DNA of 63,867 nucleotides, filler included, from an uncultured Methanosarcinales archaeon (GTDB taxonomy: Archaea > Nanobdellota > Nanobdellia > Woesearchaeales > CAYXTQ01): the NCBI GenBank assembly GCA_964608065.1. It is 8 parts of 8 records of this genome, joined end to end, with 100 filler letters (N's around TTAATTAATTAA, not from the genome) between each part and the next. Parts side by side here need not be neighbours in the genome. Positions count along the whole stretch, not along the records: positions 43,773 to 52,107 come from CAZSMA010000065.1; 7 more parts are not named here. The stretch is one strand, 5' to 3'. The notes beneath the pieces are model-generated. The model had not been told where the DNA came from. It saw nothing but the letters and a program-made list of their open reading frames with translations, and made no database searches. Shown here piece after piece: positions 21,215 to 52,207 of the stretch. Numbering within the stretch: the first letter of the stretch is position 1; each line of letters begins with the position of its first letter. The position numbers and the translations under genes are program-made.

Positions 21215-21925
21215 ATGAGGGGGAGTAATAATAAAGTACCAAAACACATAGGAATAATTTTAGATGGTAATAGGAGATTTAGCAAAAGATTAATGGTAAA
21301 GCCGTGGAAAGGTCATGAATATGGTGCTAAAAAGATTGAGAAATTATTGGAATGGTGCAAAGAGTTGGGTATTAAGGAATTAACATTATATGCTTTTTCT
21401 ATAGAAAATTTTAACAGACCTAAGAAAGAGTTTGATTATTTAATGAATTTATTTAGGAAAGAATTTTCAAGGTTAAAGGATGATAAAAGGATACATGAGA
21501 ATAAAATAAGGATTAATATTATAGGAAGAATTCATATGTTTCCAAAAATGGTTCAGGAAAGTATGAATGAGGTTATGGAGAAAACTAAGGATTATAAGGA
21601 TTATATTATCAATTTTGCAATGGCTTATGGCGGCAGAACAGAAGTAATAGATGCTGCTAAAAAGATAGCTGAAATGGTTAAGAATGGTAAGTTGAATGTT
21701 GAAGATATTAATGAAGAAGTTTTCTCAAAAAATTTGTATTTTAAAGATGAGCCTGATTTGATTATTAGGACTGGTGGGGAAAAAAGAACTAGTAATTTCT
21801 TAATATATCAAGGAGCTTATGCCGAATGGTTATTTTTAGAGAAAATGTGGCCAGAGTTTGAGAAAGAAGATCTGAAAGAAGCAATAGTTGAGTATGGTAA
21901 AAGAAAGAGAAGGTTTGGTCGTTAA
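21215..21925 (+). CDS. uppS: cis-prenyltransferase (undecaprenyl diphosphate synthase family)
   Basis: HIGIILDGNRR, YAFSIENFNR, DLIIRTGGEKRTSNFL. Confidence 0.95.
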   Translation: MRGSNNKVPKHIGIILDGNRRFSKRLMVKPWKGHEYGAKKIEKLLEWCKELGIKELTLYAFSIENFNRPKKEFDYLMNLFRKEFSRLKDDKRIHENKIRINIIGRIHMFPKMVQESMNEVMEKTKDYKDYIINFAMAYGGRTEVIDAAKKIAEMVKNGKLNVEDINEEVFSKNLYFKDEPDLIIRTGGEKRTSNFLIYQGAYAEWLFLEKMWPEFEKEDLKEAIVEYGKRKRRFGR

Positions 21926-22731
21926 AAATTCTTGATTTTCTCAATAACATCTCTAACAATATAATTTGGAGTTGATGCTCCAGCTGTTATTCCTATGTTG
22001 TTTTTTGATTTAAACCACTGTTTTTTCAGGTCTTTTGTAGTTTCTATATGTTTTGTTGTTGTTAGTGTTGAGCATAGTCTTGCTAATTGTTTAGTATTTG
22101 CTGAGTTATATCCACCTATAACTATCATTAAATCTGAATGTTTAGCTAAGTTAATAGCAGCAATTTGTCTTTCAGCTGTTGCATTGCAGATTGTGTCAGA
22201 TACTTTTACTTCTTTGCTTTTTTTTTTTAAAGCTTTGACTATTTCATTGACTTTAGCTTTAGACTGTGTTGTTTGTGATATAATGGCTATTTTTCTGTAT
22301 TTTTTTAGTTTTTTTAAGTCATTTAAAGATTCAATTACTGTTTTTCTTTTTAGATTTCCTACAATGCCTTTAACTTCTGGATGGTTTTTTTCACCAACAA
22401 CAATAACCTGATATCCTTGTTTTTCTGAGATTTTTGCTATATGCTGTGCTTTTTTTACAAAAGGGCAGGTTGCATCAATAATGTTTTTTTTTTTTAGTTT
22501 TTTTAAAACAGAATCAGGAACACCATGTGCTCTGATGATGACTTTTTTTTGCTTTATTTTGTTTAAAGAAGATACTGCTTTAATTCCGTTTTTTTCTAAA
22601 GCAGCTATAACCTGAGGATTATGTATTAAAGGGCCAATTGTGTTTGCTTTGTCGTTTGTTTTTTTAGCTATGTCTAGTGCTCTTTTTACTCCAAAGCAAA
22701 ATCCATAGTTTTTAGCTAGTCTTATGTTCAT
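21922..22731 (-). CDS. ispH: 4-hydroxy-3-methylbut-2-enyl diphosphate reductase
   Basis: GFCFGVKRA, DATCPFV, DTICNATAERQ, GITAGASTP. Confidence 0.96.
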   Translation of the reverse strand: MNIRLAKNYGFCFGVKRALDIAKKTNDKANTIGPLIHNPQVIAALEKNGIKAVSSLNKIKQKKVIIRAHGVPDSVLKKLKKKNIIDATCPFVKKAQHIAKISEKQGYQVIVVGEKNHPEVKGIVGNLKRKTVIESLNDLKKLKKYRKIAIISQTTQSKAKVNEIVKALKKKSKEVKVSDTICNATAERQIAAINLAKHSDLMIVIGGYNSANTKQLARLCSTLTTTKHIETTKDLKKQWFKSKNNIGITAGASTPNYIVRDVIEKIKNF

Positions 22732-23546
22732 ATTGTGTGTGTTAAGTAAATGTTTTTATATTTATTTTTTAAGTTTTTATACGCTTGTTTTTGCAGATCA
22801 TTATTTTGGAATATTCCGAAAACTGAGGGTCCTGAGCCAGACATCAATGAAGCTAAAGCTTTGTTGTTAATTAAATCTTGTTTTATTTCATTTATTATTG
22901 GATTTTGTTTTATAATATGTTGTTCAAAATCATTAAATAAATGCTTTGCAATATAGTTAATATCAGAGTTATTGATTGCTTCTAAGATGTCTTTTTGATT
23001 TGTTTTTTTATAGGTTTTGAACAAAGAGTATGCGTTTTTTGTTGATATTTGGATTTCTGGTGTTATTAGAATCAATGGAGTATTAGGTATTTTTTTTAGT
23101 TTTAGTAATAATTCACCTTTTCCTTTAACCAAACAAGTATGGCCTGTCAAGCAGAAAGGAACATCAGAACCTATTTCTAAAGCTAAATCTATTAAATCTT
23201 GGAAAGAAAGGTTTAAATTCCATAGTTTGTTTAAAGCATATAATGTTGTTGCAGCATTGCTTGAACCTCCAGCTAATCCTGCCGAGATTGGAATGTTTTT
23301 TTTTATTTTAATTTTGATGCCTTGCTTTACATTGAATCTGTCTTTTAGTAATCTTGCTGTTTTTCCAACAATGTTGTTTTTTTTTATTTCTTTGCAATCT
23401 ACAATAATGTCTTTGTGTTTTTTAAATTTTAAAGTATCATGAAGATCTATTTGATTCATAATAGAAGAAATATTATGATAATTATCTTTACGTTTTTCTA
23501 TAACATTTAATGTTAAGTTTATTTTTGCAAATGATTTTAGCTGCAT
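22728..23546 (-). CDS. ispE: CDP-ME kinase
   Basis: AKINL, IPISAGLAGGSSNAA, GSDVPF, MSGSGP; likely start MQLKSF. Confidence 0.95.
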   Translation of the reverse strand: MQLKSFAKINLTLNVIEKRKDNYHNISSIMNQIDLHDTLKFKKHKDIIVDCKEIKKNNIVGKTARLLKDRFNVKQGIKIKIKKNIPISAGLAGGSSNAATTLYALNKLWNLNLSFQDLIDLALEIGSDVPFCLTGHTCLVKGKGELLLKLKKIPNTPLILITPEIQISTKNAYSLFKTYKKTNQKDILEAINNSDINYIAKHLFNDFEQHIIKQNPIINEIKQDLINNKALASLMSGSGPSVFGIFQNNDLQKQAYKNLKNKYKNIYLTHTI

Positions 23547-24685
23547 TTTATTACACTTACTATAACAAAGCATTGGATTCCTAATCCTTTACCCCAAGGT
23601 GTAAGTTCTTCACCGCTTGTAGTTGTTATTCCTATGTCATTCCCAGTTATTCCCAGGATAGTCTTAAGACTATGTTTTATTTTATCGACTACAGGTTCTA
23701 ATTTTGGAGTTTTGGCTTCAACCATTATTCCGATGTTGTTTATTTTGTAATTTTCTTTTTTTAGAAGCTCTAAAGCTAGTTTTATGTATTGTTTTGAATC
23801 TTTAATACCTAGATTTTTGCATAAATCGTCACAATAGTGGCCAATAGACTTTTTTCCTATTGCATTTGTAATAGCATTGAATAAAGCATGCAGAATAACA
23901 TCACCATCTGAGTTTGCTTCTAGTTTATTTTCATTTTTAAAGAATAATGTTCCTAATGTTAATCCTTTTTTATTAGAGAATTTGTGTGAGTCCTGGCCTA
24001 AGCCGATTCTTGCATTGTTTGAGATAAATTTAAGATTTTCATAATCATTTTGAGTAGTTATTTTGAAGTTTTCTTCTGAGCATTCTACTAATTTAACTTT
24101 ATGGTTTAGTCTTTCAACTAAAGCCACATCATCTGTTGCATAGAAATTATCTGCTTTTGCTTTTTCAAATGCTTTTAATGCTAAATCATATCTTATACAT
24201 TGAGGCGTTTGTATTTGGTATAAATTAGAACGGTCTAATGTTTTTTCTACAAAATTATCTTTTACTTGCTTTATTGTGTCTTTTGCTTTAAAACCTGCAA
24301 CAGAAGCTCCGTGTTTTTTAGCTTGTTTAATGCATTCATTGATTGTTTTTTGTGTAATTAATGGGTTTGCTGCATTATGTATTACTATTATGTCATTAGA
24401 TTTTGCTTTTATTGATTTTATTCCATTATAAACAGAATCTTGTCTTTTTTCTCCTCCAATAACTATTTTCTTTATTTTTTTTAAGTTGAATTGTTTTAAT
24501 AGATTATTTAGAATGTGTGCGTTTTCTTCACTTGTTACTATGGTTATTGTATCAATATCAGAATCTTCAAATTGTTTTAAAGTATGGTATATTATGGGTT
24601 TATTGATTATGTTTAAGAATATCTTGTTTAATGATTTATTCATTCTTGTGCTTTTTCCAGCACCAACTATAATAGCATGGTTCAT
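23537..24685 (-). CDS. ispDF: Bifunctional IspD/IspF
   Basis: GAGKSTRM, GGEKRQDSV, QTPQ, KITT (IspD); RIGLGQDSH, SDGDVILHA, TTSGEEL (IspF). Confidence 0.93.
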   Translation of the reverse strand: MNHAIIVGAGKSTRMNKSLNKIFLNIINKPIIYHTLKQFEDSDIDTITIVTSEENAHILNNLLKQFNLKKIKKIVIGGEKRQDSVYNGIKSIKAKSNDIIVIHNAANPLITQKTINECIKQAKKHGASVAGFKAKDTIKQVKDNFVEKTLDRSNLYQIQTPQCIRYDLALKAFEKAKADNFYATDDVALVERLNHKVKLVECSEENFKITTQNDYENLKFISNNARIGLGQDSHKFSNKKGLTLGTLFFKNENKLEANSDGDVILHALFNAITNAIGKKSIGHYCDDLCKNLGIKDSKQYIKLALELLKKENYKINNIGIMVEAKTPKLEPVVDKIKHSLKTILGITGNDIGITTTSGEELTPWGKGLGIQCFVIVSVIKCS

Positions 24686-24810
24686 GGATTAACCCCCTAG
24701 AAGCTGATAATAAATTGGGTTTTATAATGGTTGTGGTTTAGTTATTACTTTCGTAGAATATAAATGTTTAAATATTATTTATTGAATTGGTAGATATAAG
24801 GTGGTGTATA

Positions 24811-25353
24811 ATGAAAATATTTGGGAGTGGTAAAGCAAAATATAAAGATGAAGGTTTGTATTCCCTAATCCAACCTGTAATTGAAGCTAACTTTAAAACT
24901 TACGGGGAACCCCCGGGTACAAATATTTATAGAAAAGAGATGAGGAAACTTAGGAAAGGTGAGCCACAGAAAATATTACAGGAATATCCTCTTGCTAGAC
25001 AAATAGTGTGGGCGTTATTGAGTGAGGAACGCTGGGTTAGAGTATTATGTGAGAAATGGGCTTTTGAAAAAGAATCAGTTTTTTTTGATGGGGTTAAAAA
25101 AGAAACACTTGAAAATACTTTAGATGCTCTCCGAAAAGGTGGTTTATTAGATATGGTAGGTGATTGTTTTAGTAGTTCATATTGTTTTGCAAGTGAATTA
25201 ATTACTGAAATGAGCAAAGGTACTTTTTGGAACCCTCCATCTGTAAAAGGGTTTGAATATAGAGTCAACGAGGAGTTGAGAGAAGCATTAATAAAATTTT
25301 TACAACCATATGAATCAGAAAAACGCCAGTATCAACTTCCTAAGAAGTCTTGA
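24811..25353 (+). CDS. Hypothetical protein lying antisense between dxr and ispDF
   Basis: ORF with own TATA box and GGTGG RBS. Confidence 0.65.
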   Translation: MKIFGSGKAKYKDEGLYSLIQPVIEANFKTYGEPPGTNIYRKEMRKLRKGEPQKILQEYPLARQIVWALLSEERWVRVLCEKWAFEKESVFFDGVKKETLENTLDALRKGGLLDMVGDCFSSSYCFASELITEMSKGTFWNPPSVKGFEYRVNEELREALIKFLQPYESEKRQYQLPKKS

Positions 25354-26470
25354 TTATTTCTTCACTTTTTTTTCTAGCCCATTTATCAGCTTCTAGAATT
25401 TCATCTATATCTGGGTTTTTGATTAAGGAATGGGAATCCATAACTGATTTGATTGTTTCTGGAATTTTTAAGAAAGGTATTTTATCCTGTAAAAAAGCAT
25501 TAACTGCTATTTCATTAGCTGCATTCATAACAGAAGGAAGTGTTCCTCCAATAGTTCCTGCATCATAAGCGTATTGTAAACATGGGAATAGTTCTAGATT
25601 TGGTTGTTTGAATGTTAATTCCTTAGCTTTTACTAAATCTAAGGTTGTCAAAGTGTCATTAGGTAAGCGTTTTGGATATGTTAAAGCATATTGTATAGGA
25701 ATTTTCATAGAAGGGATTCCTAATTGAGCTATAATTGACTTATCTTTGAATTCAACTAAAGAATGGATTATAGATTGTGGATGGATAACAACTTCAATTT
25801 TATTATAAGGCATGTTGTAAAGCCAGTGTGCTTCAATAACTTCAAAGCCTTTGTTCATTAAAGTTGCACAGTCAATGGTAATTTTAGCACCCATATCCCA
25901 AGTTGGGTGTTTTAGAGCGTCTTTTGCTTTAACTGTTTTCATTTGCTCTAAATTAAGGTTTTTGAAAGCTCCGCCTGAGCATGTTATTATTATTTTGTTT
26001 ACTTCTTTTTGATTTTCTCCATTTAGGCATTGGAATATAGCAGAATGTTCAGAATCTATAGGCATTAATGAAATTCCTTGTTTTTTTACTTGTTCCATTA
26101 CAATAGAGCCAGCAGTTACCAAAGTTTCTTTGTTAGCTAAAGCTATGTTTTTTTTGTGTTTTATAGCTTCTAAAGTAGGTAGAACACCGATAGAGCCAAC
26201 AAGAGAGTTAATTACAGTATCAGTTTCATTCAAACAAGCTATTTTTTTTATCCCTTCCAACCCAGAATATACTTCAATATCAACTTTAGATTTAAGTTCA
26301 TCTGCTTTTTCATTATCCATAACTGCAACTGCTATTGGATTGAATTCTTTAATTTGTTTTTCAAAGATTTCAATATTTTTATTGCAAGTTAATCCAATTA
26401 GTTTGAATTCATTAGGAAACTTCTTGATTATTTCTAAAGATTGCTGGCCAATAGAGCCTGTTGAGCCTAA
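25340..26470 (-). CDS. dxr: 1-deoxy-D-xylulose 5-phosphate reductoisomerase; first residues lost at contig end
   Basis: LGSTGSIG at contig edge; LANKETLV, PIDSEHSA, HPTWDMGAKITID, NAANE. Confidence 0.96.
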   Translation of the reverse strand, partial: LGSTGSIGQQSLEIIKKFPNEFKLIGLTCNKNIEIFEKQIKEFNPIAVAVMDNEKADELKSKVDIEVYSGLEGIKKIACLNETDTVINSLVGSIGVLPTLEAIKHKKNIALANKETLVTAGSIVMEQVKKQGISLMPIDSEHSAIFQCLNGENQKEVNKIIITCSGGAFKNLNLEQMKTVKAKDALKHPTWDMGAKITIDCATLMNKGFEVIEAHWLYNMPYNKIEVVIHPQSIIHSLVEFKDKSIIAQLGIPSMKIPIQYALTYPKRLPNDTLTTLDLVKAKELTFKQPNLELFPCLQYAYDAGTIGGTLPSVMNAANEIAVNAFLQDKIPFLKIPETIKSVMDSHSLIKNPDIDEILEADKWARKKSEEIIKTS

Positions 26471-36733: not shown

Positions 36734-37924
36734 ATGCAAGAAATTTATGAACCAAGAGAAGACTCTTATTTATTATTAAAACAGGTTAAAAAATACTCTA
36801 AAGGTATTGTTTTAGACATGGGAACTGGTTCTGGGATACAGGCTTTAGGAGCTGCTAAAAATAAAAATGTAAAAAAAGTTATTGCTGCAGACATCAATAA
36901 AAAAGTAATTCAATCATTAAAAAAAAATAAAATAAAATTTATTCAAAGTGATCTGTTCTCAAATATAAATCAAAAGTTTGATATGTCGGTAAATCGCAAA
37001 GCGATTTCCGATCATGCTCAAAAACCTATGGTTTTTGACACAATCATATTTAATCCTCCATACTTGCCTGAAGATCCAAAACTAAAGGATTTGACTTTGG
37101 ACGGGGGGAAACAGGGCTATGAAGTTATTGAAAGATTCCTGAATGAAGTTAACAATTACCTTAAAACTGATGGAATAATATTGATTGTGTTCTCTTCTTT
37201 AACAAAAAAAAAGAAAGTTGATGAATTTATTCAGAATAATATGCTGGAGTTTAGGTTATTGGAAAAACAGCATATTTTTTTTGAAGATTTGTATGTTTAT
37301 TTGATTGAAAAATCTGAAATATTAAAACAATTAGAGAAAAGAAAAATAAAAAACATTAAAAAACTTACAAAAGGTCATAGAGGATTGATTTATACTGGAA
37401 ATAATAAGGAGATTACAATCAAAATAAAAAATCCTGAGTCTGAAGCTATTGACAGGATTAAAAACGAAGTAAATTATTTAAGATTATTAAACAAACATAA
37501 TATTGGTCCTAAACTATTATTTTTTTCTGATGATTATTTTGTCTATGATTTTATCGACGGAGATTTTATTGAAGATTATATAAAAAAATCAAGTAAAAGC
37601 AATATAATCAAAGTGTTAAAAGAAGTTTTTGAGCAAATGTTTGTTTTAGATAAATTGAAAATAAACAAAGAAGAAATGCACCATCCTGTGAAACATGTTA
37701 TAATTAGCAAGAATACGCCTGTATTGCTAGATTTCGAGCGTTGTCGTAAAACTTTAAAACCCCATAATGTAACACAGTTCTGCCAGTATTTGATTAAGAT
37801 TACAAAATTGTTGAAAGAAAAGAAAATAAACATTAATAAAGATAAAATAATTGAATTATCTAAAAGGTATAAGAAAAAATATGATAAGAAGATTTTGGGG
37901 TTGATATTAAATGAAATTCAATGA
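36734..37924 (+). CDS. HemK2/N6AMT1-like methyltransferase fused to a small kinase-like domain; carries a 19-aa insertion
   Basis: IYEPREDS, DMGTGSG, FNPPY; KGHRG, KEEMHHP, LLDFE. Confidence 0.9.
   Translation: MQEIYEPREDSYLLLKQVKKYSKGIVLDMGTGSGIQALGAAKNKNVKKVIAADINKKVIQSLKKNKIKFIQSDLFSNINQKFDMSVNRKAISDHAQKPMVFDTIIFNPPYLPEDPKLKDLTLDGGKQGYEVIERFLNEVNNYLKTDGIILIVFSSLTKKKKVDEFIQNNMLEFRLLEKQHIFFEDLYVYLIEKSEILKQLEKRKIKNIKKLTKGHRGLIYTGNNKEITIKIKNPESEAIDRIKNEVNYLRLLNKHNIGPKLLFFSDDYFVYDFIDGDFIEDYIKKSSKSNIIKVLKEVFEQMFVLDKLKINKEEMHHPVKHVIISKNTPVLLDFERCRKTLKPHNVTQFCQYLIKITKLLKEKKININKDKIIELSKRYKKKYDKKILGLILNEIQ
36984..37040. mobile_element. 57-bp in-frame palindromic insertion
   Basis: TGTC...GACA ends, two hairpins; removal gives KFDTIIFNPPY. 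Confidence 0.75.
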
Positions 37925-37979
37925 AAAAGTTTACAAAATTGTAAAAAAAATACCAAAAGGAAAAGTAACTACATATAAA
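37911..37979 (+). pseudogene. Orphaned original 5' end of the MGMT/ogt-family gene
   Basis: MKFNEKVYKIVKKIPKGKVTTYK, then homology stops; frame ends at TGA 38019-38021. Confidence 0.85.
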
Positions 37980-37981
37980 AA

Positions 37982-37996
37982 CGGAAGATTTATATA
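37982..37996 (+). promoter_or_regulatory. BRE/TATA promoter carried by the endonuclease insert
   Basis: CGGAAGA-TTTATATA about 22 nt before ATG 38018. Confidence 0.6.
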
Positions 37997-38017
37997 TTCA
38001 AAAATCTTTATTTATTT

Positions 38018-39316
38018 ATGAGAACTTGGAAGAAACATGAACTGGATTTCTTAAAACAGAATTATAAGACTTTAGATTATAAATATATTCGTAAAAAATT
38101 AAATCGCTCGATAGGAAGTATATACTGGAAATGTTTTGACCTAGGGTTGAAGAAAGGTAGATGGACTGAAAAAAATAGACTAACTAAAAATAAGGTAATT
38201 AAATTGTTAATAGAACAAAGTAGAAAATTAAACAAATCTCCATCTGTAAGAGACATACCTATATCTTTAAGATCTGCTTGTCAAAAACATTTTGGCAACT
38301 TTAATAATGCAAAAAAACATGCAGGTTTAGGTATCAAAGAGTATTATCCAAAATTAAAAAAACAATGCTACAATGAAAGTAAAGAACTAGCTTATATAGC
38401 TGGTGCACTAATTGGTGATGGTAGTTTTAGATTACAAAAATCTAAGAAGAGGTCATGTTATGTTATGATTTTTGCAACTAAAGATAAAGATTTTATGGAT
38501 TTTTTTGTTCATAATTTTAATAAGTGGTGTAATTATAAACCTAAAATAAAAAAAAAAGAAGGGGGCTATAAAAAATTTCCTAGTGGTAAATATTATAATT
38601 ATAATGAGACATACATAACTCAGATTCCTTTTAAAGAAGCCTGGAAATTTTTAAAAAAATTTAAGGATAATCCAATTTTTTGTATAAAATTATTTTCAGA
38701 TGAAAACCTTAAATGGTTAATTAAGGGTTTATGGGATGCTGAAGGATGTGTAAGCGTAACAAAACAAGGATATATGAGAATCTATTTTAGTAATTCTGAT
38801 AAAAAAGTAATAGACTTATATAAAAGATTATTAAAAAAATTTAATTTTACATTTTCTCTTTACAAACAAGGTAAATCCGTTAATATAAATATACTCAACG
38901 AATATGAAATGTTAAGATTTATTAACCTAATTTATGGAATAACTATAAAAAGAAAAGAAACAGAAGCTATAATAAACAAATTAAGAAACCAAAAAATTTC
39001 TAAAGATGATGAGAATTTTACACAAGCTGTTTATAGACTGGTTAAACAGATTCCTCGTGGACGTGTGTCTACTTACGCTAATATTGCACGAGCTCTAAAA
39101 ACAAAAGCATACAGAGCTGTTGGTAATGCTTTAAGATGTAATCCCTATGCTCCAAAAGTGTCATGTCATAGAGTTATTGCTTCTGACGGAAGTTTAGGCG
39201 GGTTTATGGGCAAAACTAAAGGAAAAACAATTGAAAAGAAGATTAGATTGTTAAGAAAAGAGGGAGTAAAGATAAATAAAAATAAAATAAATTTAAAAAG
39301 ATATTTATGGAAATAA
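38018..39316 (+). CDS. LAGLIDADG endonuclease fused to a complete MGMT (O6-alkylguanine alkyltransferase) domain
   Basis: AYIAGALIGDG and LIKGLWDAEG; then VYRLVKQIPRGRVSTY..RAVGNAL..SCHRV..LLRKEG; no intein termini. Confidence 0.9.
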   Translation: MRTWKKHELDFLKQNYKTLDYKYIRKKLNRSIGSIYWKCFDLGLKKGRWTEKNRLTKNKVIKLLIEQSRKLNKSPSVRDIPISLRSACQKHFGNFNNAKKHAGLGIKEYYPKLKKQCYNESKELAYIAGALIGDGSFRLQKSKKRSCYVMIFATKDKDFMDFFVHNFNKWCNYKPKIKKKEGGYKKFPSGKYYNYNETYITQIPFKEAWKFLKKFKDNPIFCIKLFSDENLKWLIKGLWDAEGCVSVTKQGYMRIYFSNSDKKVIDLYKRLLKKFNFTFSLYKQGKSVNINILNEYEMLRFINLIYGITIKRKETEAIINKLRNQKISKDDENFTQAVYRLVKQIPRGRVSTYANIARALKTKAYRAVGNALRCNPYAPKVSCHRVIASDGSLGGFMGKTKGKTIEKKIRLLRKEGVKINKNKINLKRYLWK

Positions 39317-43622: not shown

Positions 43623-43772
43623 TTTAACAAACGCGTTTAGTGTTCTCTTTGATGTATATGTCAATAAAAGTCNNNNNNNNNNNNNNNNNNNNNNNNNNNN
43701 NNNNNNNNNNNNNNNNTTAATTAATTAANNNNNNNNNNNNNNNNNNNNNNNNNNNNNNNNNNNNNNNNNNNN

Positions 43773-43830
43773 CTGTCAAATTTATTAGAAATAGATTACA
43801 ACATACTCCACATTCAAGACATTTATTCAC
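43773..43830 (-). CDS. N-terminus of a CxxCxxCC (YkgJ-like) protein, truncated by contig end
   Basis: GTG start: MNKCLECGVCCNLFLINLT. Confidence 0.6.
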
Positions 43831-43842
43831 CTTTTCCCCCCA

Positions 43843-44109
43843 CTATCTTTTATTCAAACCGCTTTTCTTCTTGCCCCAATTCCACTTCCATTCTCCATCT
43901 GTTTTTCTTTTTGAGATTACAGTTACTGCAACAATACCTGCAAATAAATATAATAAGTATTTACCTGTATTCCCCTCTTCAGTTATTAACATACTTAGAG
44001 AAAGTATGTATAATATAAAAACAACTACTACTGCCCACCCTTCCCATGTGGTTGGAGTAGCACCATATCCAAAACCTCTTGGTTTGAACCAATATTTGTT
44101 AGATTTCAT
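43843..44109 (-). CDS. Small 2-TM membrane protein
   Basis: WFKPRGFGYGATPTTWEGW...WKWNWG. Confidence 0.8.
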   Translation of the reverse strand: MKSNKYWFKPRGFGYGATPTTWEGWAVVVVFILYILSLSMLITEEGNTGKYLLYLFAGIVAVTVISKRKTDGEWKWNWGKKKSGLNKR

Positions 44110-44116
44110 TCTTTCA

Positions 44117-45110
44117 TTACCTCCAACTTACATTAACATCATCAGTTCTTTCATAAGGTCTGATAGAACTATCTTTTGTTCTGATACCTGATTTATACTC
44201 CAACAAACCAAGATAAGCTATCATTGCTGCATTGTCTACTAAGAATTCATTTGGAGGAATAAAACACTTAAAACCATTATCTTTACACATTCTTTTAGCC
44301 ATTTCCTGAAAGCGTAAATTACAAGCAACACCTCCGCCTAAAATCAATTCTTTTTTATCACAATGATGCAAAGCTCTTTCTGCAACTTCTAAAAGCATTG
44401 CAAAAGCTGTTTCCTGCATTGAATATGCTAAATCTTCTTTTTTAAACTTTTTATCATATTTCTTTTTCAAATTAGTTAATAAACCACCAAAACTAACATC
44501 CATTCCTTTAACAACATAAGGTAATTCAATAAACTTTGAAGATTTTAAACTCAATGAATAAAGTTTAGGACCTCCTGGAAAACCTAAACCTAAATATCTA
44601 GCAAAAGCATCTAAGAAATTACCAACTCCAATATCTAATGTTTCTCCAAATATTCTATATTTTCCAGCTTCATAAGCAATAACTTGTGTGTTAGCACCTG
44701 AAGCATATAATAAAACAGGATCTTTTACAGGAAACAGCATATTACCTATTTCAAGGTGTGCAATACAATGATTAACACCTATTAAAGGTTTATTTAACAT
44801 CAAAGCTAAAGTTCTGGCAAAAAATGCTCCTATCCTTAAACAATGACCTATTCCGGGACCTTGTGAAAATGAAATTAAATCTACATCTTTTAATTTTAAT
44901 TTAGATTTATCTAATGCTTGTTTCAAAACCTTATCACAAACCTCAACATGATGCTCAGCTGCTTTAGCTGGGATTATTCCACCTGATGAAGTGATATAAC
45001 TATCTTTAACATTAGAAATTACTTTCTTATCTTTTACAATACCAACACCAAAAGTATCTCTGCCTTTAGAGTGCAGTACTTTCAATGCCGAGACATATTA
45101 AAGGTTTCAT
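44117..45110 (-). CDS. kae1: Kae1 t6A synthase (KEOPS), two exons: 45110-45071 and 45057-44117 (326 aa spliced)
   Basis: Exon 1 MKPLICLGIESTA, exon 2 (H)TFGVGIV; GPG, HCIAH, SGANT, GETLD, DNAAMIA. Confidence 0.9.
45058..45070 (-). other. 13-nt BHB-type mRNA intron in kae1 (predicted)
   Basis: Sense strand AAAGTA CTGC AC^T CTAAAG GCAG AG^A TACTTT. Confidence 0.85.
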
Positions 45111-46333
45111 CTTTCTAATTTCTTAGCCCTCTTATGTATATTTTTCGTTCTTATAGCAATATTTTCTTCATTTAATATTTTTTTTACTATTTCTGTTCCT
45201 TTTAGGCCATTCTTTATATTTTTTTCCACTTTTTCTATTAACCAAGGAGGCCATTTTCCAGATATTTTCTTAGCTTTATATAGTTTTTCCATTTGTTCAT
45301 ATCTATAGCTCTTGACAGTAGGATTAAATGTTGGTAGATTATATGCATCCTTAATACTAATCATTAAAGTCCATAATTTTGTTCTAGTAATAAGCCAAGG
45401 TTTAGCACTAATATTTAATGACTTAAGAATATTTTTTATAAGTCCTGTATTTGGTTCTGTTATGATACCAACTTTTTGACTACTAAAATCCACAAAACCA
45501 TCTGAATCTGCTAAGCCTTGAAGGAAAAAAATCTTAAACTCTCTTGGAGATTTTAAAATCCAATCTGCCCTAATCGGATTATATGTTGTTAATTCATTAT
45601 TCTTTAATCCAAGACAAACATTAAAAATCCATTGAATCAAAAGAGATGATTGAGAGATCCACGTGTAAAAAGGATAAACATTTCTTTTTCCTGCTGGGCA
45701 ATCTTTGCATCTGTTCATACGCATACTTAAGTAATTAGTGCATAGTTTTACAAATTCCCCTAACCTTTCATTTGTTTTATATCCTTTTGAAAGCCTAAGA
45801 TGGATTCTTCTTGTAACTCTTTGTTTTCTTTTTATTCCTGTTTTACTTGAATCTCCTATTAAAATACCTAATAGATAAGCAAAACATAGTTCTTTTTTAG
45901 TTTTTATTTGTTTTCCTTGTAATACCTTTAATTGTTTTATAACAGAATAAATATCATTATATGATTCTATTTTTTCAGGTACTTGAATCCATGGCTCAAT
46001 AAGTAGTCCTCCTCTAGTTGAATTTATAGAAAGCCACTTTAGATTGTTTTTTGGTTTTCCTAAGTTTAAATAATGGTCTAAAATTCTTATGATAAAGGGT
46101 TTGTTTCCTTCATATATCCAATGATCAATTTTTCTTTTTGAGATTTTTGTTAATTTTGCTATTTGTGAAGCAGAAAAACCCCGTGTCCTATGTAAAATTA
46201 CTTTTGAATATTCTTTGAAATCTTTTATATCTTTTTTATTAATAAATATTCCATAGAAATATTTTATGAAGTTTATACCCGGATGTCTTTTGAAATATTT
46301 AATTAAATTTTTATTAATTTTCATTTGAATCAT
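45107..46333 (-). mobile_element. Free-standing LAGLIDADG homing endonuclease gene inserted in the kae1 5' end
   Basis: AYLLGILIGDSS and FLQGLADSDG; N-terminal HTH; stop overlaps new kae1 start (ATGA). Confidence 0.88.
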
Positions 46334-46462
46334 CAATTTTTCTTAGGTTGAAACTATGTAAATGCTTTTCCTTTATATACCTCACGTACACTTGGCCAGT
46401 GGCCAGTGAGGTTAGAAAAAGCATAATTTAATAGTTGAAACAATATTTGAGTGATTCAAATG
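46322..46462 (-). promoter_or_regulatory. ~140-nt imperfect hairpin overlapping the endonuclease start codons
   Basis: Nested arms 46322-46332/46452-46462, 46352-46357/46431-46436, 46362-46369/46417-46424, 46379-46385/46406-46412. Confidence 0.7.
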
Positions 46463-46472
46463 TTATTAAAAT

Positions 46473-46514
46473 TTAATAAGGGTATTTTATTGATTCTATA
46501 CCCAAACAATTCAT
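46473..46514 (-). pseudogene. Orphaned original 5' end of kae1
   Basis: MNCLGIES-IKYPY*; AAAAGCA-TTTAAATA promoter about 27 nt upstream. Confidence 0.85.
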
Positions 46515-46572
46515 TTTATCAAGTAGTAAAAAACCTAAAAGTATTTAAATGCTTTTAAAACACTCAAATACA

Positions 46573-47613
46573 ATGAAGACTGTATTAGCTATAGGAGATA
46601 TGTGTGATTGGGACTCCTTCAAGAAGTTTTACAGACAGAGAAGATTATTCAGCAAACACGGATTTAAGTTTAAAAATGTTGAATATAAATCAATTTTAAG
46701 AGATGAATTTCCTTCTATAAAGACTGAAAAAATCATAATTTTCTTCTTTTTTCCATTCAACTACTGGAATAAAAAAATAGAAACAAAGCATTACAAAGGA
46801 GTTTATGGAAACAGGTATTTTTATATAAAGTTCAGAAAATTCTGGAATGAAATAACAAAAAAGCTTAATGACCATTATCATGACAAGCAGATATTTTATG
46901 TCAATCATCCGCAGCAGATAACTTTAGACAGAGACAAATATGTTACAAGCAAAATATTAGAAAAAAACAATATTTTAGTTCCAAAATATTACCGAACAAG
47001 AGACTTAAAAAAGATATTAAGATTTCTTGATGAAGGAAGGAAACTGTTCATAAAAGTAAGATATGGCTCTATGGGCAAGGGAATAACATATCTAGAGAAA
47101 AAATACTGGTTTACTAATTTTAGATTCAAGAATAACAAAATAATAAGCAAAAAATCTGATTATGGATGGAAATTCAGGAATAAGACAGGCAATAAAAAAT
47201 TCTTAAAAGCTTTGTTAAAAGAAGATATTATAATTGAGGAAGCAATCAATCCTTTATTATTAAAAGGAAGAAAATTTGATCTAAGGATGTATGTTTGTTT
47301 TGGAAAAGTTGTATATATATACCCAAGAAGCAATGATCCTATACAGCCAACAACAAATATTTCACAAGGAGCAATAGGAGAAGGAAAAGAGTTTTTAGAA
47401 AGCATTCCACCTAAAGTATTGAGAGATTCTATAAAATATGCTATAAGATCTACTAAAGCTATGAAACTGAATTTTGCAGGTGTCGATATAATGCCAAACG
47501 GCAAAGGAGTTACTGTCATAGAAGTCAATACATTTCCTGGATTTCCAAAAACAAGGAAATTCAATCTTTCTAAATACATAATAAAGGAGATAACGCAAGA
47601 AAAATGGATATAA
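46573..47613 (+). CDS. ATP-grasp ligase (RimK/YheC-like)
   Basis: DKY, FIKVRYGSMGKGI, KFDLR, TTNISQG, AGVDI, IEVNTFPG. Confidence 0.85.
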   Translation: MKTVLAIGDMCDWDSFKKFYRQRRLFSKHGFKFKNVEYKSILRDEFPSIKTEKIIIFFFFPFNYWNKKIETKHYKGVYGNRYFYIKFRKFWNEITKKLNDHYHDKQIFYVNHPQQITLDRDKYVTSKILEKNNILVPKYYRTRDLKKILRFLDEGRKLFIKVRYGSMGKGITYLEKKYWFTNFRFKNNKIISKKSDYGWKFRNKTGNKKFLKALLKEDIIIEEAINPLLLKGRKFDLRMYVCFGKVVYIYPRSNDPIQPTTNISQGAIGEGKEFLESIPPKVLRDSIKYAIRSTKAMKLNFAGVDIMPNGKGVTVIEVNTFPGFPKTRKFNLSKYIIKEITQEKWI

Positions 47614-48065
47614 GAAGAGCAACAATAGATGATTTTGAGAAAGTTTTACCAATCAAGTTAGAATCTAAAGAAGAAGAAAGAAAGTATAATCCTGGATTAG
47701 AGCCTATAAAGAAAGTGATTGAAAACTACAAAGGATATCTTAGGAATGATATTGAAAGTGAATGGAGGGCTGTTTTTATAGCAGAGGATAAAGAAGTCAT
47801 TGGAATCATAGTTGCTAAAGTTTACAGAACATTAATAGTTGCTGGCTATGAAAGAAGAGGTTATTTAACTAATCTTTATGTTAAACCAAAGTTCAGGAGA
47901 AAAGGCATAGGTAAAGAATTATTTAACACAGCAGTAGCTTGGTTAAAGAAAAAGAAAGCAAAAGGAGTTACTTTAGAGATACACAGTGCAAACAAAGACA
48001 AGGTTAATTTCTATCATAAATTTGGATTTAAAGACTTTACAATAAAGATGGTTAAGAAGATTTAG
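47604..48065 (+). CDS. GNAT acetyltransferase
   Basis: LYVKPKFRRKGIG, FYHKFGF. Confidence 0.92.
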   Translation: MDIRRATIDDFEKVLPIKLESKEEERKYNPGLEPIKKVIENYKGYLRNDIESEWRAVFIAEDKEVIGIIVAKVYRTLIVAGYERRGYLTNLYVKPKFRRKGIGKELFNTAVAWLKKKKAKGVTLEIHSANKDKVNFYHKFGFKDFTIKMVKKI

Positions 48066-49086
48066 TTTCTGGAAATACTAAGTCTATTAAAGAAGCTGCT
48101 GCGTTTCTTGGCTTTCCTATATAAGGATAATGGTGTAATGCAATTCCTGGCATGTTGTTGACTTCAATAATTTTATAATTTTTGATTATATCTTTTGTAA
48201 TGTCTTTTGTGATTATGTCAATTCCTGCATATGTAAGTCCTGGAATTGCTTCCAAAACCTTCATTGCTATCAACTTAGCAGAAGGGTGCGCATCTTCAGT
48301 AAAAGCGATACTGTCTCCTCCTGAACACATATTTGAATTGTGTCTTAGAAATATTCTCTCATTATTTTTTGGAATTGACTCTAATGTGAGTTTTTGTTTT
48401 TTTAGATTAGTTATTGTATCTTCATCAATCTTGATTTTATACCATGGATTTAAACTAAGTTTATCTCCTTTGTCTTTACGGTCTATATTTTTTTTTATTA
48501 TTAATTCATTTATGTTTGTTTTTCCATCTCCGAGAACAGATGCTGGTCTTCTCATTGTTACAGCACAATATCCATCTTTTGTTATAAAAACACGGTATTC
48601 GTTTCCTTCGTAATATCTCTCAACAATTATCCTCTTGTATTTTTTTCCAAGATTGCATGCTACATCTTTTATGTCCCTTTTCCATATCTTGCAATGGACT
48701 CCATTTCCAAAATCTGTGTTATCTGGTTTTAACACTATTTTACTATCAGTTGCTTTTGCATAATTATTTATTGCATCAATCTTAGATGATTCAAAAATTT
48801 TACCTTCTGGAACAGATAACCCCCTTTTTTTTAGGAATAGTTTTGTATCTGTTTTGCTGCACAGTATCTTCTTTGTGATTGCTGGCAAACTTGTGTTATC
48901 AGCACCATAAAAAAGTGCGATTTTATCTTTATATTTAAGCTGCACATATTTACTTAAAAGTACATTTGCTTTTATTCCCCTCTTAAGAGCTTCACTTATA
49001 ATAATGCAGGATGTTAGTCCTATACCTCTAAAATCATAATCTTTTCTATCTAGAAAATTGATTTTATAATTATTGTGTTTTTCCAT
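48052..49086 (-). CDS. ATP-grasp ligase like the GshF/cyanophycin synthetase ATP-grasp domain
   Basis: VLKP..GNGV, EYRV, RRPASVLGDG, SNMCSGGDS, IIEVNNMPG. Confidence 0.88.
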   Translation of the reverse strand: MEKHNNYKINFLDRKDYDFRGIGLTSCIIISEALKRGIKANVLLSKYVQLKYKDKIALFYGADNTSLPAITKKILCSKTDTKLFLKKRGLSVPEGKIFESSKIDAINNYAKATDSKIVLKPDNTDFGNGVHCKIWKRDIKDVACNLGKKYKRIIVERYYEGNEYRVFITKDGYCAVTMRRPASVLGDGKTNINELIIKKNIDRKDKGDKLSLNPWYKIKIDEDTITNLKKQKLTLESIPKNNERIFLRHNSNMCSGGDSIAFTEDAHPSAKLIAMKVLEAIPGLTYAGIDIITKDITKDIIKNYKIIEVNNMPGIALHHYPYIGKPRNAAASLIDLVFPETKSS

Positions 49087-49202
49087 AACAGAGTTAGTCC
49101 TTTATTGTCAGAGATACTCTAAAGGTATTAAAAGTTTTCTGTTTTTTACTACCTCCATTATATAGAAATGTTTTTATATTATGTTTTCTAAATATTTGTA
49201 TT

Positions 49203-49883
49203 ATGGTAGCAAAAGGAGTTCAGGAAAAAAGAAGATTTGTTATTCTTAACAATTATAAAAATGAAAAACATTTTAGACATCTTGAGACTGCTGTGAACGA
49301 ACAGCTTAAGAAAATAAAAGAAGAAAAACCAGACTTTAATTATGAGGTTGTTAAGTATGATAATTATGGTGAAAACAGGGATAAAATAAAAAAAGAAATA
49401 GGTAAAGGAGATACTATAATATCTGGAGGCTCTACTAATGCAGGAGAAAAAATAAAAGGTAATTATGTCAAAGTTGGGGATGAAGTGCATCATCACATAA
49501 GGGATAATCTAAAAGATAACTATTTCTTAGGAATCTGCCATGGTGCTCAGGCAATGGGTGAGGCATATGGTGGTAGGATTACAAGAACAGAGCACAGACA
49601 TATGAAACGTAGAGAGCCAACTAAAATAGAATCAGACCTGGACTTATTTAGAAGTGATGCAAAAAGTAAGTATCATGCTAATCATAGATATTATATAAAA
49701 TCTTCAGATAAAGGTAAACTCAAACCTATTGCTAAGACAGTATCAGAACATACTGGAGAAGAGTTCATTGATGCTTATAAAGTAGGAAATCATTATGGAT
49801 TGCAATTCCATCCAGAAAGGACAAAAAGGGGAGAGGACTTATTAAAGAAGTTCTTATACAAAGCAGTAGGTTATTCAAAGTAA
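49203..49883 (+). CDS. Class I glutamine amidotransferase-like protein
   Basis: ISGG, LGICHGAQ, GLQFHPE. Confidence 0.88.
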   Translation: MVAKGVQEKRRFVILNNYKNEKHFRHLETAVNEQLKKIKEEKPDFNYEVVKYDNYGENRDKIKKEIGKGDTIISGGSTNAGEKIKGNYVKVGDEVHHHIRDNLKDNYFLGICHGAQAMGEAYGGRITRTEHRHMKRREPTKIESDLDLFRSDAKSKYHANHRYYIKSSDKGKLKPIAKTVSEHTGEEFIDAYKVGNHYGLQFHPERTKRGEDLLKKFLYKAVGYSK

Positions 49884-50900
49884 TTTCTCTCTTCCTTTAG
49901 GAAGCTTAAACTGCAACTTACCGTCTTTTGTCATCAGGCCTTGTTTTAAGTCTTCTTTGTTTGCAACTTTAATTACAAATGGCAATATCATTCTGCTCAA
50001 AGAAATAGAAACTACTCTTGGCAAGGCTGCTGGCAGATTATCTATAACATAATGTGTTATGCCTTCCACTTTGTATGTTCCTTCTCCTAAAGACCTTGGC
50101 TTAGAAGTTTCTATAGCACCTTTTTCATCGCAGGAAATATCATTAATTAAGCTTTTTTTTTTTAATAGTTTAAGATCTTTTCTTTTTACAATATGACCAT
50201 AAGATGGATGCCATACAATAGCATTGACTAATATATCAACATCAGGCAGATACTTTTCAATATGTGGTGTTTTATCCTTGTATAGAATTTGTGGCGTTAT
50301 TTTAGCATGTTTTAAAACTTCTTGGCAGCCTTTTGAAACATTACCACAACCCATTATTACAACAGAGGGTTTTTTTTTTAATTTTAATTTTGATAATTCT
50401 TTGTAAACATTTGGCTTTTTAAAACATTTTTGTATTGGAGGAAGTTTTTTGAATCCATTTCCTATCATATCACCATAAATCCTTAATCCTTCGTACATTC
50501 CAACAACTCCTGCTTCAAAACCTAAAGTTACTAATCTTTTTTTTCTTTTGTCTCTGATTTCTTCATAAGCATAACTCTTGACTTTATTCTTTAATAGTTT
50601 TTTTAATAAAGGAATGTCTTGCCCTTTTTCAACATGAAGATAACCCATTATAATCTGATTCTGCTTTATTGTATTCAAAGGGGGTGTTTTAACCCTTACG
50701 ATCATTGGAGAATCATAAACATTTTTTTTTATTTTTGCACCCACTTTAATATAATCTTTATCAGAAAATCCGCTTTTCAGTCCTGCATTATGCTCAACAA
50801 AAACAGTATGACCTATCTTAACTAATTCTTTTACACGAAAAGGAGTTAAAGCTATTCTTTGCTCTCCTATCTTTGTTTCTTTAGGAATACCTATTATCAT
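49875..50900 (-). CDS. Alanine dehydrogenase/PNT-family NAD(P) oxidoreductase
   Basis: IIGIPKE..EQRIALTP, GCGNVSKG, DISCDEKGAIETS. Confidence 0.85.
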   Translation of the reverse strand: MIIGIPKETKIGEQRIALTPFRVKELVKIGHTVFVEHNAGLKSGFSDKDYIKVGAKIKKNVYDSPMIVRVKTPPLNTIKQNQIIMGYLHVEKGQDIPLLKKLLKNKVKSYAYEEIRDKRKKRLVTLGFEAGVVGMYEGLRIYGDMIGNGFKKLPPIQKCFKKPNVYKELSKLKLKKKPSVVIMGCGNVSKGCQEVLKHAKITPQILYKDKTPHIEKYLPDVDILVNAIVWHPSYGHIVKRKDLKLLKKKSLINDISCDEKGAIETSKPRSLGEGTYKVEGITHYVIDNLPAALPRVVSISLSRMILPFVIKVANKEDLKQGLMTKDGKLQFKLPKGREKLL

Positions 50901-51341
50901 TTTAAAATTTTATTCATAAGAATTATTTAAATTTGTTCATTAAATAAAATTTAATAAAAAAAAAAAAAATGAAAACCACGCATACACTTGCACTAGATTT
51001 AAGAACTGTTGGAAACTGCGTGCTGAACATCTCGTTGCCTTGATGCTTACACACCAGTCCCATCAAACTCATATTTTATGAGTGTTCTAAATGTGTCTAT
51101 TTTCGAGGTGGGCTTCGTGCTTAGATGCTTTCAGCACTTATCCCTATAAAGCGTAGCTGCCCTGCGTACCTTGTAAGATAACAGGTAGACCAGTGGCTTC
51201 GAAAGCCAGTTCCTCTCGTACTATGGCTTCCTTCCCCTCAGACACAAACATTTCCAGTAGATATCAAACAAACTGCCTCACAGCGTTCTGAACCCAGCTC
51301 ACGATCCCTTTTAATTGGTGAACACCCACACCCTTGGGCGC

Positions 51342-51389
51342 CTACAGTTCGAAGAAATGTAGGTTCCGAAAAACCTAATTTTTCGATAT
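51342..51389 (-). other. 48-nt relaxed-BHB intron in the 23S helix 91 loop
   Basis: GGGCGT GCAG AA^A ... CTGT AG^G CGCCC; splicing restores GGGCGUGCAGAAGCGCCC. Confidence 0.8.
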
Positions 51390-51446
51390 TTCTGCACGCC
51401 CAGGATAGGAAGAGCCGACATCGATGTAGCAAGCCGCGCCGTCGAT

Positions 51447-51533
51447 ATGCTCTAGAACGTTAAAGCTATTGCTATGAGAAATGAAGACCTATAAATGACC
51501 TCAAATCACAGACTAGCGGCCTTAACGCTCAAA
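51447..51533 (-). other. 87-nt BHB intron in 23S helix 89
   Basis: GA GCTC AT^T TTGAGCGTTAAGG...CTTTAACGTTCTA GAGC AT^A TC; splicing restores GAGAGCUCAUAUCGACGG. Confidence 0.88.
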
Positions 51534-52207
51534 ATGAGCTCTCAGGCGCGACAACTCTGTTATCCCCGGAGTAACTTTTTGGTCATCTCTAACCTCGATC
51601 AATGAGGTATAAAGGTTCGCTAGGCCAAACTTTCGTTTTTGGATTTCGTCTTGTTAAAAATCCAATTAGGCTGGCTTTTGCCCTTGCGCTCTACAGCCGA
51701 TATCTGACCGGCTTGAGCCAACCTTTGGACCCTGCTGATACATTTTCAGCAGGGTGCCACCCCAGCCAAACTATCCACCTACAGGTGTCCTTTTTGCAAA
51801 GTAAGCAACGTAAATTTTGTAGAGTGGTGTTACATCGTTGTCTACACTCAAACTTGCGTCTAAGCTTTAGCGACTCCCACTTACGCTATACAACAAAATC
51901 CACATCGCAACCATAGGCTATAGTAAAGTTTCACGGGGTCTTCGCTTCCCACTGGAAATCTCTGGCCTTTGCACCAGAATAGAGTATTCAGAGGATTCTA
52001 GTTGGGGACAGTGATGATCTCGTTACGTCATTCATGCAAGCCGTCATTCAAACGGCAAGGTATTACGCTACCTTAAGAGAGTTATAGTTACCCCCGCCGT
52101 TTACCAGNNNNNNNNNNNNNNNNNNNNNNNNNNNNNNNNNNNNNNNNNNNNTTAATTAATTAANNNNNNNNNNNNNNNNNNNNNNNNNNNNNNNNNNNNN
52201 NNNNNNN

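Follow-up and report, generated by a model that had tools for sequence, protein, structure and literature searches.

The kae1 gene of an uncultured archaeon (GenBank assembly GCA_964608065.1, named as Methanosarcinales and placed by GTDB within the Woesearchaeales) raises the question of how an essential gene can come to have two starts, with an open reading frame (ORF) for a LAGLIDADG protein between them, and still encode a complete product. The window analysed here is a stretch of 63,867 nucleotides (nt) composed of eight parts of eight records of this genome, joined with filler, and the kae1 locus lies in the part taken from record CAZSMA010000065.1 (positions 43,773 to 52,107). The answer reached is that the 5' end of kae1 has probably been taken over by a composite mobile element, made up of a free-standing I-DmoI-like LAGLIDADG gene, a substitute gene head of ~13 codons and a bulge-helix-bulge (BHB) intron in the His codon of the ..STAHTF.. 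motif. This reading draws on the anatomy of the locus, the geometry and covariation of the BHB motif, the predicted fold of the endonuclease and its conserved catalytic residues, the strict linkage of its gene to kae1, the sporadic distribution of the occupied genes, the recurrence of displaced starts, and the discordance between trees.

Two Starts at the kae1 Locus

Read along the minus strand, the locus displays a TATA-like box, a short remnant of a kae1 start (hereafter the stump), a hairpin, an ORF of 409 codons, a second kae1 start (the head), a mini-intron and the Kae1 body. Stump, hairpin, LAGLIDADG ORF, ATGA-coupled head and intron had all been named in the original prediction, made from the sequence of the window, and each was found where it had been placed. 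The TATA-like box, TTTAAATA (46542..46549, minus), lies 28 nt 5' of the stump ATG and is presumed, by analogy with archaeal promoter geometry, to be the native kae1 promoter. The stump itself (46473..46514, minus) begins with an ATG at 46514-46512, spells eight Kae1 codons (MNCLGIES, 46514-46491), and continues with five unrelated codons (IKYPY) and a stop down to 46473. Uninterrupted relatives begin in a similar way, with M(I/L)CLGIES, and the stump codons are typical for this genome. When the 1.5 kb upstream of each endonuclease gene were searched in a calibrated scan, the window stump reached the maximal CLGIES score of 32; by chance ~0.06 matches of this type would be expected in such an interval, an overestimate because the background contains true heads.

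The head forms exon 1 of the present gene (45071..45110, minus) and consists of MKPLICLGIESTA and the first base of a His codon. Its ATG (45110-45108) overlaps the TGA of the endonuclease gene (45109-45107) as ATGA. After MKPLICLGIESTA its frame reads L and then a stop, two codons on, and the Kae1 body resumes in the +1 frame. This native-like body, exon 2 (44117..45057, minus), runs from the rest of the His codon to the stop and matches Pfam TsaD at 1e-80. It is 82-84% identical to uninterrupted relatives, appears as sister to one of them (P0122), and shares no more than 69% identity with the Kae1 proteins of endonuclease-linked loci. Stump and head had been described as encoding the same residues in different codons, and over CLGIES they indeed agree in only 11/18 bases; the CTC and GGC codons of the head are rare here (1.8% of Leu and 10.8% of Gly codons, respectively, in a genome of 30.5% GC). 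The intron, expected a few bases past the point of insertion, is likewise located as proposed, the stump ending 7 nt before the position equivalent to the intron insertion point. There are 616 N in the window, and one run of them, at about 43680-43730, breaks ORFs just downstream of kae1.

The 150 nt that separate stump and endonuclease gene contain a strong hairpin of 85 nt (46352..46436, minus; -28.9 kcal/mol, z -5.1), with none of 200 shuffles reaching equal stability. Its 3' arm includes TATATAAA (46379-46372), 39 nt before the ATG at 46333. No second copy was found in the window and no match in Rfam, the spacer that holds it is not common to other endonuclease-kae1 loci, and no comparably strong hairpin is present at those loci (best z +0.6 to -2.8 versus -5.9 in the window). 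The hairpin was rejected as part of the mobile element on these grounds (unrepeated in the window, a locus-specific spacer, weaker folds elsewhere). The predicted structure is thus present and stable, but it is locus-specific and has no evident role; it could be a terminator or insulator, a scar of the junction, or promoter context.

A Bulge-Helix-Bulge Motif behind the Second Start

The 13 nt that split the His codon, UCUAAAGGCAGAG (45058..45070, minus), adopt the geometry of a BHB intron. In the predicted RNA fold of 45100-45030, the codons for LGIES pair with those for TFGVG in a 15-bp outer helix, followed by a 4-bp helix (CUGC/GCAG), a 3-nt bulge (AGA) on the 3' strand, and ACU plus a 6-nt loop on the 5' strand. 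This loop stands in place of the inner helix, which assigns the 13-nt introns to the relaxed, bulge-helix-loop type. For the excision of BHB introns the host splicing endonuclease suffices, and no maturase takes part. The cleavage point is described as falling after residue 2 and before residue 3 of each bulge (PMC2738675). Applied here, that rule would excise exactly 45070-45058 and join GCA C to AT ACT, giving ..STAHTF.. and a Kae1 of 326 residues, the same length as in relatives.

The same parse is valid in 20/20 cases, namely the window and the 19 kae1-linked loci of other genomes described below (loci are designated by L numbers). Inserts of 13, 16, 17, 18, 19, 22 and 28 nt were found, all at the same position of the His codon; removal restores the frame and ..STAHT.. 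in every case, and the inserts with a length divisible by three contain in-frame stops. A 4-bp helix flanked by two 3-nt bulges is common to all 20, being perfect in 19 and having 3 of 4 pairs in L010, whose inner helix, by reading of the parse, spans 7 bp. Also by reading of the junctions, a stop in the frame of the head is present in 18/20 introns. Pairing was counted over the 20 regions aligned with MAFFT, which give 18 distinct rows: 90.9% of cells form pairs, and shifting the 3' strand by 1-3 columns lowers this to 36-43%. Five pairs have changed on both sides, and 0/500 shuffles reach the observed covariation score. In every row the second pair of the central helix (17-46) is formed, as UA in nine, CG in seven and AU in two; on the 5' side it uses the synonymous third position of a Thr codon, and on the other side a base of the intron. 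Geometry and covariation support the insert as a real BHB intron, whose splicing is predicted from the sequences, in line with the original proposal.

The outer helix pairs exon with exon, and the head codons that form it are nearly invariant in nucleotides across the 20 loci. The recoding of the head had been attributed to resistance against the endonuclease. The difference in codons stands, but because the recoded positions largely build an outer helix conserved in all loci, they need not reflect nuclease resistance.

Other explanations of the insert were considered. A programmed frameshift was rejected, because insert lengths fall into all classes modulo 3 and carry stops. One large BHB intron, extending from the stump to the body, was rejected by eye, the end of the stump being unable to form a bulged 4-bp helix with the sequence that precedes ACT GCA; it is also contradicted by the lack of TAH codons in the stump. 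It is barely conceivable that the whole arrangement is an artefact or a dying gene, the 13 nt being an assembly error, a pseudogene frameshift or a programmed frameshift, and the stump a chance ORF. The single assembly with its N runs (616 N) and the truncated Kae1 (P0121) predicted by gene callers would fit such an origin, which is opposed by the same architecture in 19 independent assemblies, by inserts of all modulo-3 classes with internal stops, by the covarying BHB, and by a stump score that is maximal and recurs elsewhere.

A scan of 43 ORFs of the window revealed no gene for a splicing endonuclease, and ARAGORN found no tRNA genes in the 64-kb window, hence no tRNA introns to compare. 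At L012, 45 additional Kae1 residues were evaluated as a second BHB intron, which was rejected; they correspond to an in-frame tandem duplication of a GC-rich unit of ~44 nt in the 3' part of kae1 (7174-7217 and 7248-7291).

A LAGLIDADG Protein with an I-DmoI-like Predicted Fold

The free-standing gene between stump and head (45107..46336, minus) encodes 409 residues and, by motifs and fold, a single-chain LAGLIDADG endonuclease. Its match to Pfam LAGLIDADG_3 is weak (E 0.006, below the cut-off), with both motifs visible, and a sequence search of PDB with the family profile returned 0 matches. Homologs amount to 150 at E values up to 1e-3, of which 120 were listed; among the latter the closest is 67% identical. 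Without exception (28/28), the aligned members have G161-D162 and S278-D279-G280 where the two motif helices end, and the aspartates there are those which we take to be catalytic from their register in the motif.

An AlphaFold model computed from the 28-member alignment (pLDDT 90.9, pTM 0.88) displays the pseudo-dimeric alpha-beta-beta-alpha-beta-beta-alpha fold, and its top PDB match by Foldseek is I-DmoI (2vs8_K, E 1e-7, TM 0.70 over the target). Lower in the ranking come intein endonucleases, the bI3 maturase and WhiA. Additional helical regions comprise ~100 N-terminal and ~70 C-terminal residues. The model therefore supports the ORF as an I-DmoI-like LAGLIDADG homing endonuclease in which both presumed catalytic aspartates are kept, as the original prediction had it. 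At L015 (4995-5978) and L016 (4917-5972), the endonuclease genes are devoid of the first ~98 residues, that is, of the N-terminal helical region, retain the LAGLIDADG core, and still precede an intron-bearing kae1.

The absence of intein termini and of a self-splicing intron core had also been claimed, and both hold: Pfam detects no Hint/intein domain in the ORF, and Rfam no group I or group II intron in 44900-46700 at E values up to 1. The ORF was accordingly rejected as an intein, considering that (i) it has no Hint domain, (ii) it lies upstream of the kae1 start, and (iii) in the window a stop or a frame change separates the two. No longer fused forms of the endonuclease (717-2045 residues) were found, in a search rated as weak evidence.

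Strict Linkage and Sporadic Occurrence

A genome scan with the alignment of the endonuclease family yielded 25 loci. At 19 of them kae1 is immediately preceded, on its own strand, by a relative 42-57% identical to the window protein, and all these 19 kae1 genes carry the intron. The co-occurrence of endonuclease gene and intron, one of the checks proposed originally, thus holds in 19/19 loci with a visible junction, the loci having been retrieved through the endonuclease. As for the other six, L007 ends at a contig edge and five have relatives 27-44% identical with no kae1 nearby. The linked loci come from Nanoarchaeota, Woesearchaeota, Pacearchaeota, Aenigmatarchaeota, Iainarchaeota and one 'Baldrarchaeota' bin, and the genes upstream differ from locus to locus (Sua5, S27ae/S24e, PAC2, CLP1, DoxX/DUF5680, a methyltransferase and others).

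The junction between endonuclease gene and head exhibits several forms. An ATGA or TTGA overlap is present in the window, L001 and L002; in L005, L008, L009, L010 and L012 the two overlap in another frame; and in L003, L004, L006, L014, L017, L018 and L023 the ORF runs in frame into the head and ends at the intron stop. The ATGA coupling initially described is therefore a feature of the window, but it does not extend to the seven in-frame loci. A terminal ..LG(I/V)ESTA followed by 0-2 residues closes 24 of the 120 listed endonuclease homologs (150 in all). In the in-frame loci, unspliced RNA would give a free enzyme with a short tail.

A comparison of empty with occupied alleles, also proposed from the start, was carried out on the 120 Kae1 proteins closest to that of the window (68-84% identical). 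At least 116 are uninterrupted: 116 visibly so, with an N-terminus of the M(I/L)CLGIE.TAHTFG type, and one more probably. Three display the signature of read-through into a 13-nt intron, namely the window's own (P0121), P0142 and P0202. In a head-trimmed tree of the 120, these three interrupted genes are scattered, and the starred branches force three changes; the window Kae1 is sister to an uninterrupted gene (support 96), within a six-member clade whose other five genes are uninterrupted (99). Thus, an empty site is the usual state of the gene, and occupation is sporadic.

Remnants of Displaced Gene Starts

The stump scan gave maximal scores in the window and at L011, and a high one at L012. 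The L011 stump, MICLGIES followed by unrelated codons, is located right after rps27ae in a row rpoE-spt4-rps24e-rps27ae, with ~700 nt and an extra ORF before the endonuclease gene. At L012, ..ILGIEST is followed by unrelated codons ~70 nt before the endonuclease gene. A decayed stump, MICLSCEAT plus stop, is probable 90 nt upstream at L003, and the call at L015 is ambiguous. These stumps have the short N-terminus of uninterrupted genes, and the travelling heads are mostly longer by 3-8 residues (as seen on inspection). A blind search for duplicated 8-mers across the endonuclease gene lacked power, since known stumps scored within the shuffled maxima with the exception of that in the window (31 versus a null maximum of 29). 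The claim that the element invades a resident gene and supplies a replacement 5' end is sustained by this recurrence at L011, L012 and probably L003. A divergent duplicate of the gene end next to a native remnant was found in the window, at L011 and L012, and in the MGMT gene described below. As the replaced 5' end includes the start codon, the native promoter is left stranded with the stump.

It might be argued that ordinary horizontal replacement produced this picture, a foreign segment or a whole kae1 having been recombined by chance with the endonuclease gene as a passenger. The left junctions are illegitimate and unequal in length (150, ~700 and 70 nt) and the spacers are not common to the loci, which would be compatible with chance. 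On the contrary, the three clear and independent stumps end 7, 7 and 4 nt before the intron-site equivalent, within 3 nt of each other, a shared endpoint that is hard to explain without a site-specific break. In addition, the window residues just after the intron match uninterrupted close relatives and not L001, L002 or L008; therefore, essentially only head and intron are foreign, and the head alone has been exchanged. The layout also recurs with another LAGLIDADG gene in the MGMT gene. Considering all this, a chance replacement appears quite improbable.

Discordant Histories of Endonuclease and Kae1

Trees of endonuclease and Kae1 were compared for 19 pairs, the window and 18 loci; L023, with a partial endonuclease gene, and L007, with no kae1, were omitted. 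In the endonuclease tree, the window, L001, L002 and L008 form a clade (support 97/95). In the Kae1 tree, the window and L001 group with L012, L006 and L014-18 (99/97), and L002 and L008 with L005 (95/94). Approximately unbiased (AU) tests, on groups picked after the trees were seen, indicate that the Kae1 data reject the endonuclease clade (difference in log-likelihood 82.6, p 3.7e-5) and that the endonuclease data reject the Kae1 clade (68.2, p 1.5e-4). The 13-nt intron is common to exactly the window, L001, L002 and L008, with one base different in L002. Head plus intron are identical at 50/53 nt between the window and L001, with only 108/150 identical in the preceding and 98/150 in the following 150 nt. 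Both the distribution of the intron type by endonuclease clade and this local identity imply that the intron travels with the endonuclease gene and not with the kae1 body. Sporadic presence and tree conflict with the host gene, as expected of mobile elements, are thus both observed, together with some congruent clades. That the element might be a vehicle for BHB introns, as the original prediction suggested, finds support in these discordant trees, in which the same intron type follows one endonuclease clade across two Kae1 clades.

Several observations nonetheless weigh against a mobile element. Stumps were detected in only 3, perhaps 4-5, of 20 loci; the AU groups were not chosen in advance; and the unusual codons of the head are at least partly explained by the BHB outer helix. 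The clades (L006,(L014,L017,L018)), (L003,L004) and (L011,L015) are common to both trees, and therefore suggest a long vertical persistence that is unusual for a purely selfish endonuclease gene. No near-identical endonuclease copies in different lineages were seen among the 120 listed homologs, and, with 67% as the highest identity in that set, no recent transfer is documented. Finally, the ORF is in frame with the head in 7/20 loci, where the spliced mRNA could, from its sequence, encode an endonuclease-Kae1 fusion, so that a host-related role is possible.

Much of this would also suit a domesticated LAGLIDADG protein, that is, an immobile and vertically inherited partner of intron-bearing kae1, acting as a WhiA-like DNA-binding regulator or, in the way of LAGLIDADG maturases, as an aid to intron processing, with its patchiness due to repeated loss of gene and intron together. 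The strict linkage to kae1 in several phyla, the clades common to both trees, the intactness of every full-length ORF, the in-frame fusion to the head (7/20 loci and 24/120 listed database proteins), a fold search that lists WhiA and the bI3 maturase at lower rank, and the absence of recent transfers (67% identity to the closest listed homolog) all agree with it. It is opposed by catalytic aspartates invariant in 28/28 and I-DmoI as the best fold match, by stumps that mark insertion into a resident gene at least three times, by a supported tree conflict in which both AU tests reject a shared history, and by an intron type that tracks the endonuclease clade and not the Kae1 clade. Moreover, BHB introns need no maturase. 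Domestication is consequently regarded as unlikely, and the composite mobile element is retained as the probable explanation.

The gene sua5, the partner of kae1 in the threonylcarbamoyladenosine (t6A) pathway, lies just upstream at L019 (318-992, with 1027-2277) and at L003 (3739-4353), two loci of the same Kae1 clade. Their endonucleases occupy different parts of the endonuclease tree, which suggests separate invasions or replacement of the endonuclease gene.

Proposed Route of Invasion

For target position, cleavage, repair route, immunity and splicing, we infer the following sequence of events. The enzyme would cut an uninterrupted kae1 at or near the intron insertion point in the His codon, and the break would be repaired from an occupied allele, copying endonuclease gene, head and intron. 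To the right of the break, the repair would be resolved by homology within kae1, with intron and head co-converted and the native body resuming within a few codons. On the left side, homology would be available only if the upstream context matches; otherwise, illegitimate joining would leave the resident promoter and the first 8-10 codons behind as a dead stump. The intron, and perhaps the changed codons too, would split the target and make the occupied allele immune. The host tRNA-splicing endonuclease would then remove the intron and keep the gene functional, the complete new start brought by the cassette being co-transcribed and either translationally coupled with the endonuclease ORF or fused to it.

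A Similar Layout in an MGMT Gene

A second case was found on the plus strand of the window (37911-39316). There, the DNA-binding domain of MGMT (DNA_binding_1, 81 positions) is matched over its positions 1-22 by a short ORF (37911-38021; E 8e-6), whose stop overlaps the start of a 432-residue ORF (38018-39316), again as ATGA. The latter comprises a homing-endonuclease-associated repeat, a clear LAGLIDADG domain and then, in frame, a complete MGMT domain; over its first 20 residues this domain duplicates the stump, with codons that differ and are richer in GC. The MGMT-linked and kae1-linked endonucleases share 26% identity over 167 residues, and no intron is present in the MGMT case. A search of the ESM Atlas for a LAGLIDADG-MGMT fusion gave no usable match. 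Given this second case, head replacement seems to be a recurrent mode of entry for LAGLIDADG genes in this organism.

A wider reading can be advanced tentatively. A short insertion at the cleavage site of the enzyme might survive through excision by the host tRNA-splicing endonuclease and thereby become a heritable immunity tag; the unit of endonuclease gene, head and mini-intron might move between phyla by one-sided homologous repair, hijack the promoter-proximal ends of essential genes and leave stumps behind. Taken with the MGMT case, this might be a general mode of LAGLIDADG invasion in DPANN-type archaea, with an intron or without one.

Gene ends may be involved on the other side as well. 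At L024, a 34-nt direct repeat (4761-4794 and 6375-6408, 31/34 identical) brackets a distant member of the endonuclease family (27% identical) that lies antisense beside a radical-SAM/HMPTM gene, and both repeat copies encode ..FNVIPEWYR. The gene's own tail is family-typical, since homologs align to ~522-531 of its 557 residues, and the far copy diverges at once. This repeat may be a 3'-end counterpart of gene-end replacement.

The window also contains, at 21215-26320, a bacterial-type methylerythritol phosphate (MEP) cluster (an IspD/IspF fusion, DXP reductoisomerase, LytB and a GHMP kinase) together with an undecaprenyl-diphosphate synthase. Archaea generally rely on the mevalonate route, and a cluster of this kind is uncommon among them; the window, archaeal in appearance, also encodes a TFIIB and a Kae1.

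Relation to Described Systems and Implications

A parallel in principle is the collaborative homing of phages, in which a free-standing endonuclease and an intron with no ORF of its own come together at a single site (PMC3984707). As there, the endonuclease gene lies outside but beside an ORF-less intron that sits at or near the presumed target, and the occupied allele would be immune and the pair would move together, if the target is indeed the intron site. Unlike the group I introns of that system, the introns described here are of 13-28 nt and of the BHB type, predicted to be spliced by proteins; moreover, they are found on a cellular archaeal chromosome, in an essential gene, with a replacement start carried along and stumps left behind. 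The element is not a strict member of the collaborative-homing class, because its intron is not of group I (Rfam over 44900-46700; 13-nt insert).

Gene-end replacement has its own precedent in fungal mitochondria, where the native gene end is displaced by a foreign C-terminal end that mobile ORFs carry in, as reported for Allomyces atp6 and for Glomus atp6, atp9, cox2 and nad3 (PMC3630166). The likeness, within the cases that source describes, lies in a LAGLIDADG ORF (there also GIY-YIG) joined, sometimes in phase, to a divergent duplicate of the gene end, with a native remnant. Those cases concern 3' ends in organelles; here, on the contrary, it is the 5' end with its start codon, on an archaeal chromosome, and the unit includes a BHB intron.

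Among archaeal systems, some rRNA BHB introns encode LAGLIDADG enzymes (PMC2738675). I-DmoI, whose gene is situated within such an intron, provides the nearest fold and is likewise a single-chain LAGLIDADG enzyme tied to a BHB intron. The gene described here differs in lying upstream of the start of a protein gene and not inside the intron, which is far too small to hold it, and in belonging to a family distant in sequence. The cbf5 pre-mRNA intron of Crenarchaeota, a lineage-specific BHB intron of 16-44 bp, is described as too short to encode a nuclease and of unclear origin, and was, as of 2009, the only archaeal mRNA intron with confirmed splicing (PMC2738675). Like it, the kae1 intron is a short BHB intron in an archaeal protein-coding gene, with the cut predicted between the second and third bulge residues. 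It differs from the cbf5 intron, which has no associated nuclease, in its adjacent endonuclease gene, by which it could plausibly spread, and in its sporadic occurrence across DPANN-type phyla. A full-text search, with most subscription journals outside its coverage, found no publication pairing LAGLIDADG with Kae1 and none on this arrangement.

For annotation, the arrangement means that gene callers truncate such kae1 genes, P0121 and two relatives being predicted without their true N-terminus. The family would also be a source of new LAGLIDADG enzymes of the single-chain type for which a candidate target is defined. On a wider scale, the locus extends phage collaborative homing and fungal gene-end replacement to archaeal chromosomes and to the 5' ends of genes. 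In all cases observed, the short BHB intron of this essential, universal tRNA-modification gene comes with an endonuclease gene next to it, an association that suggests a testable route by which archaeal protein genes could gain short BHB introns and these could spread horizontally.

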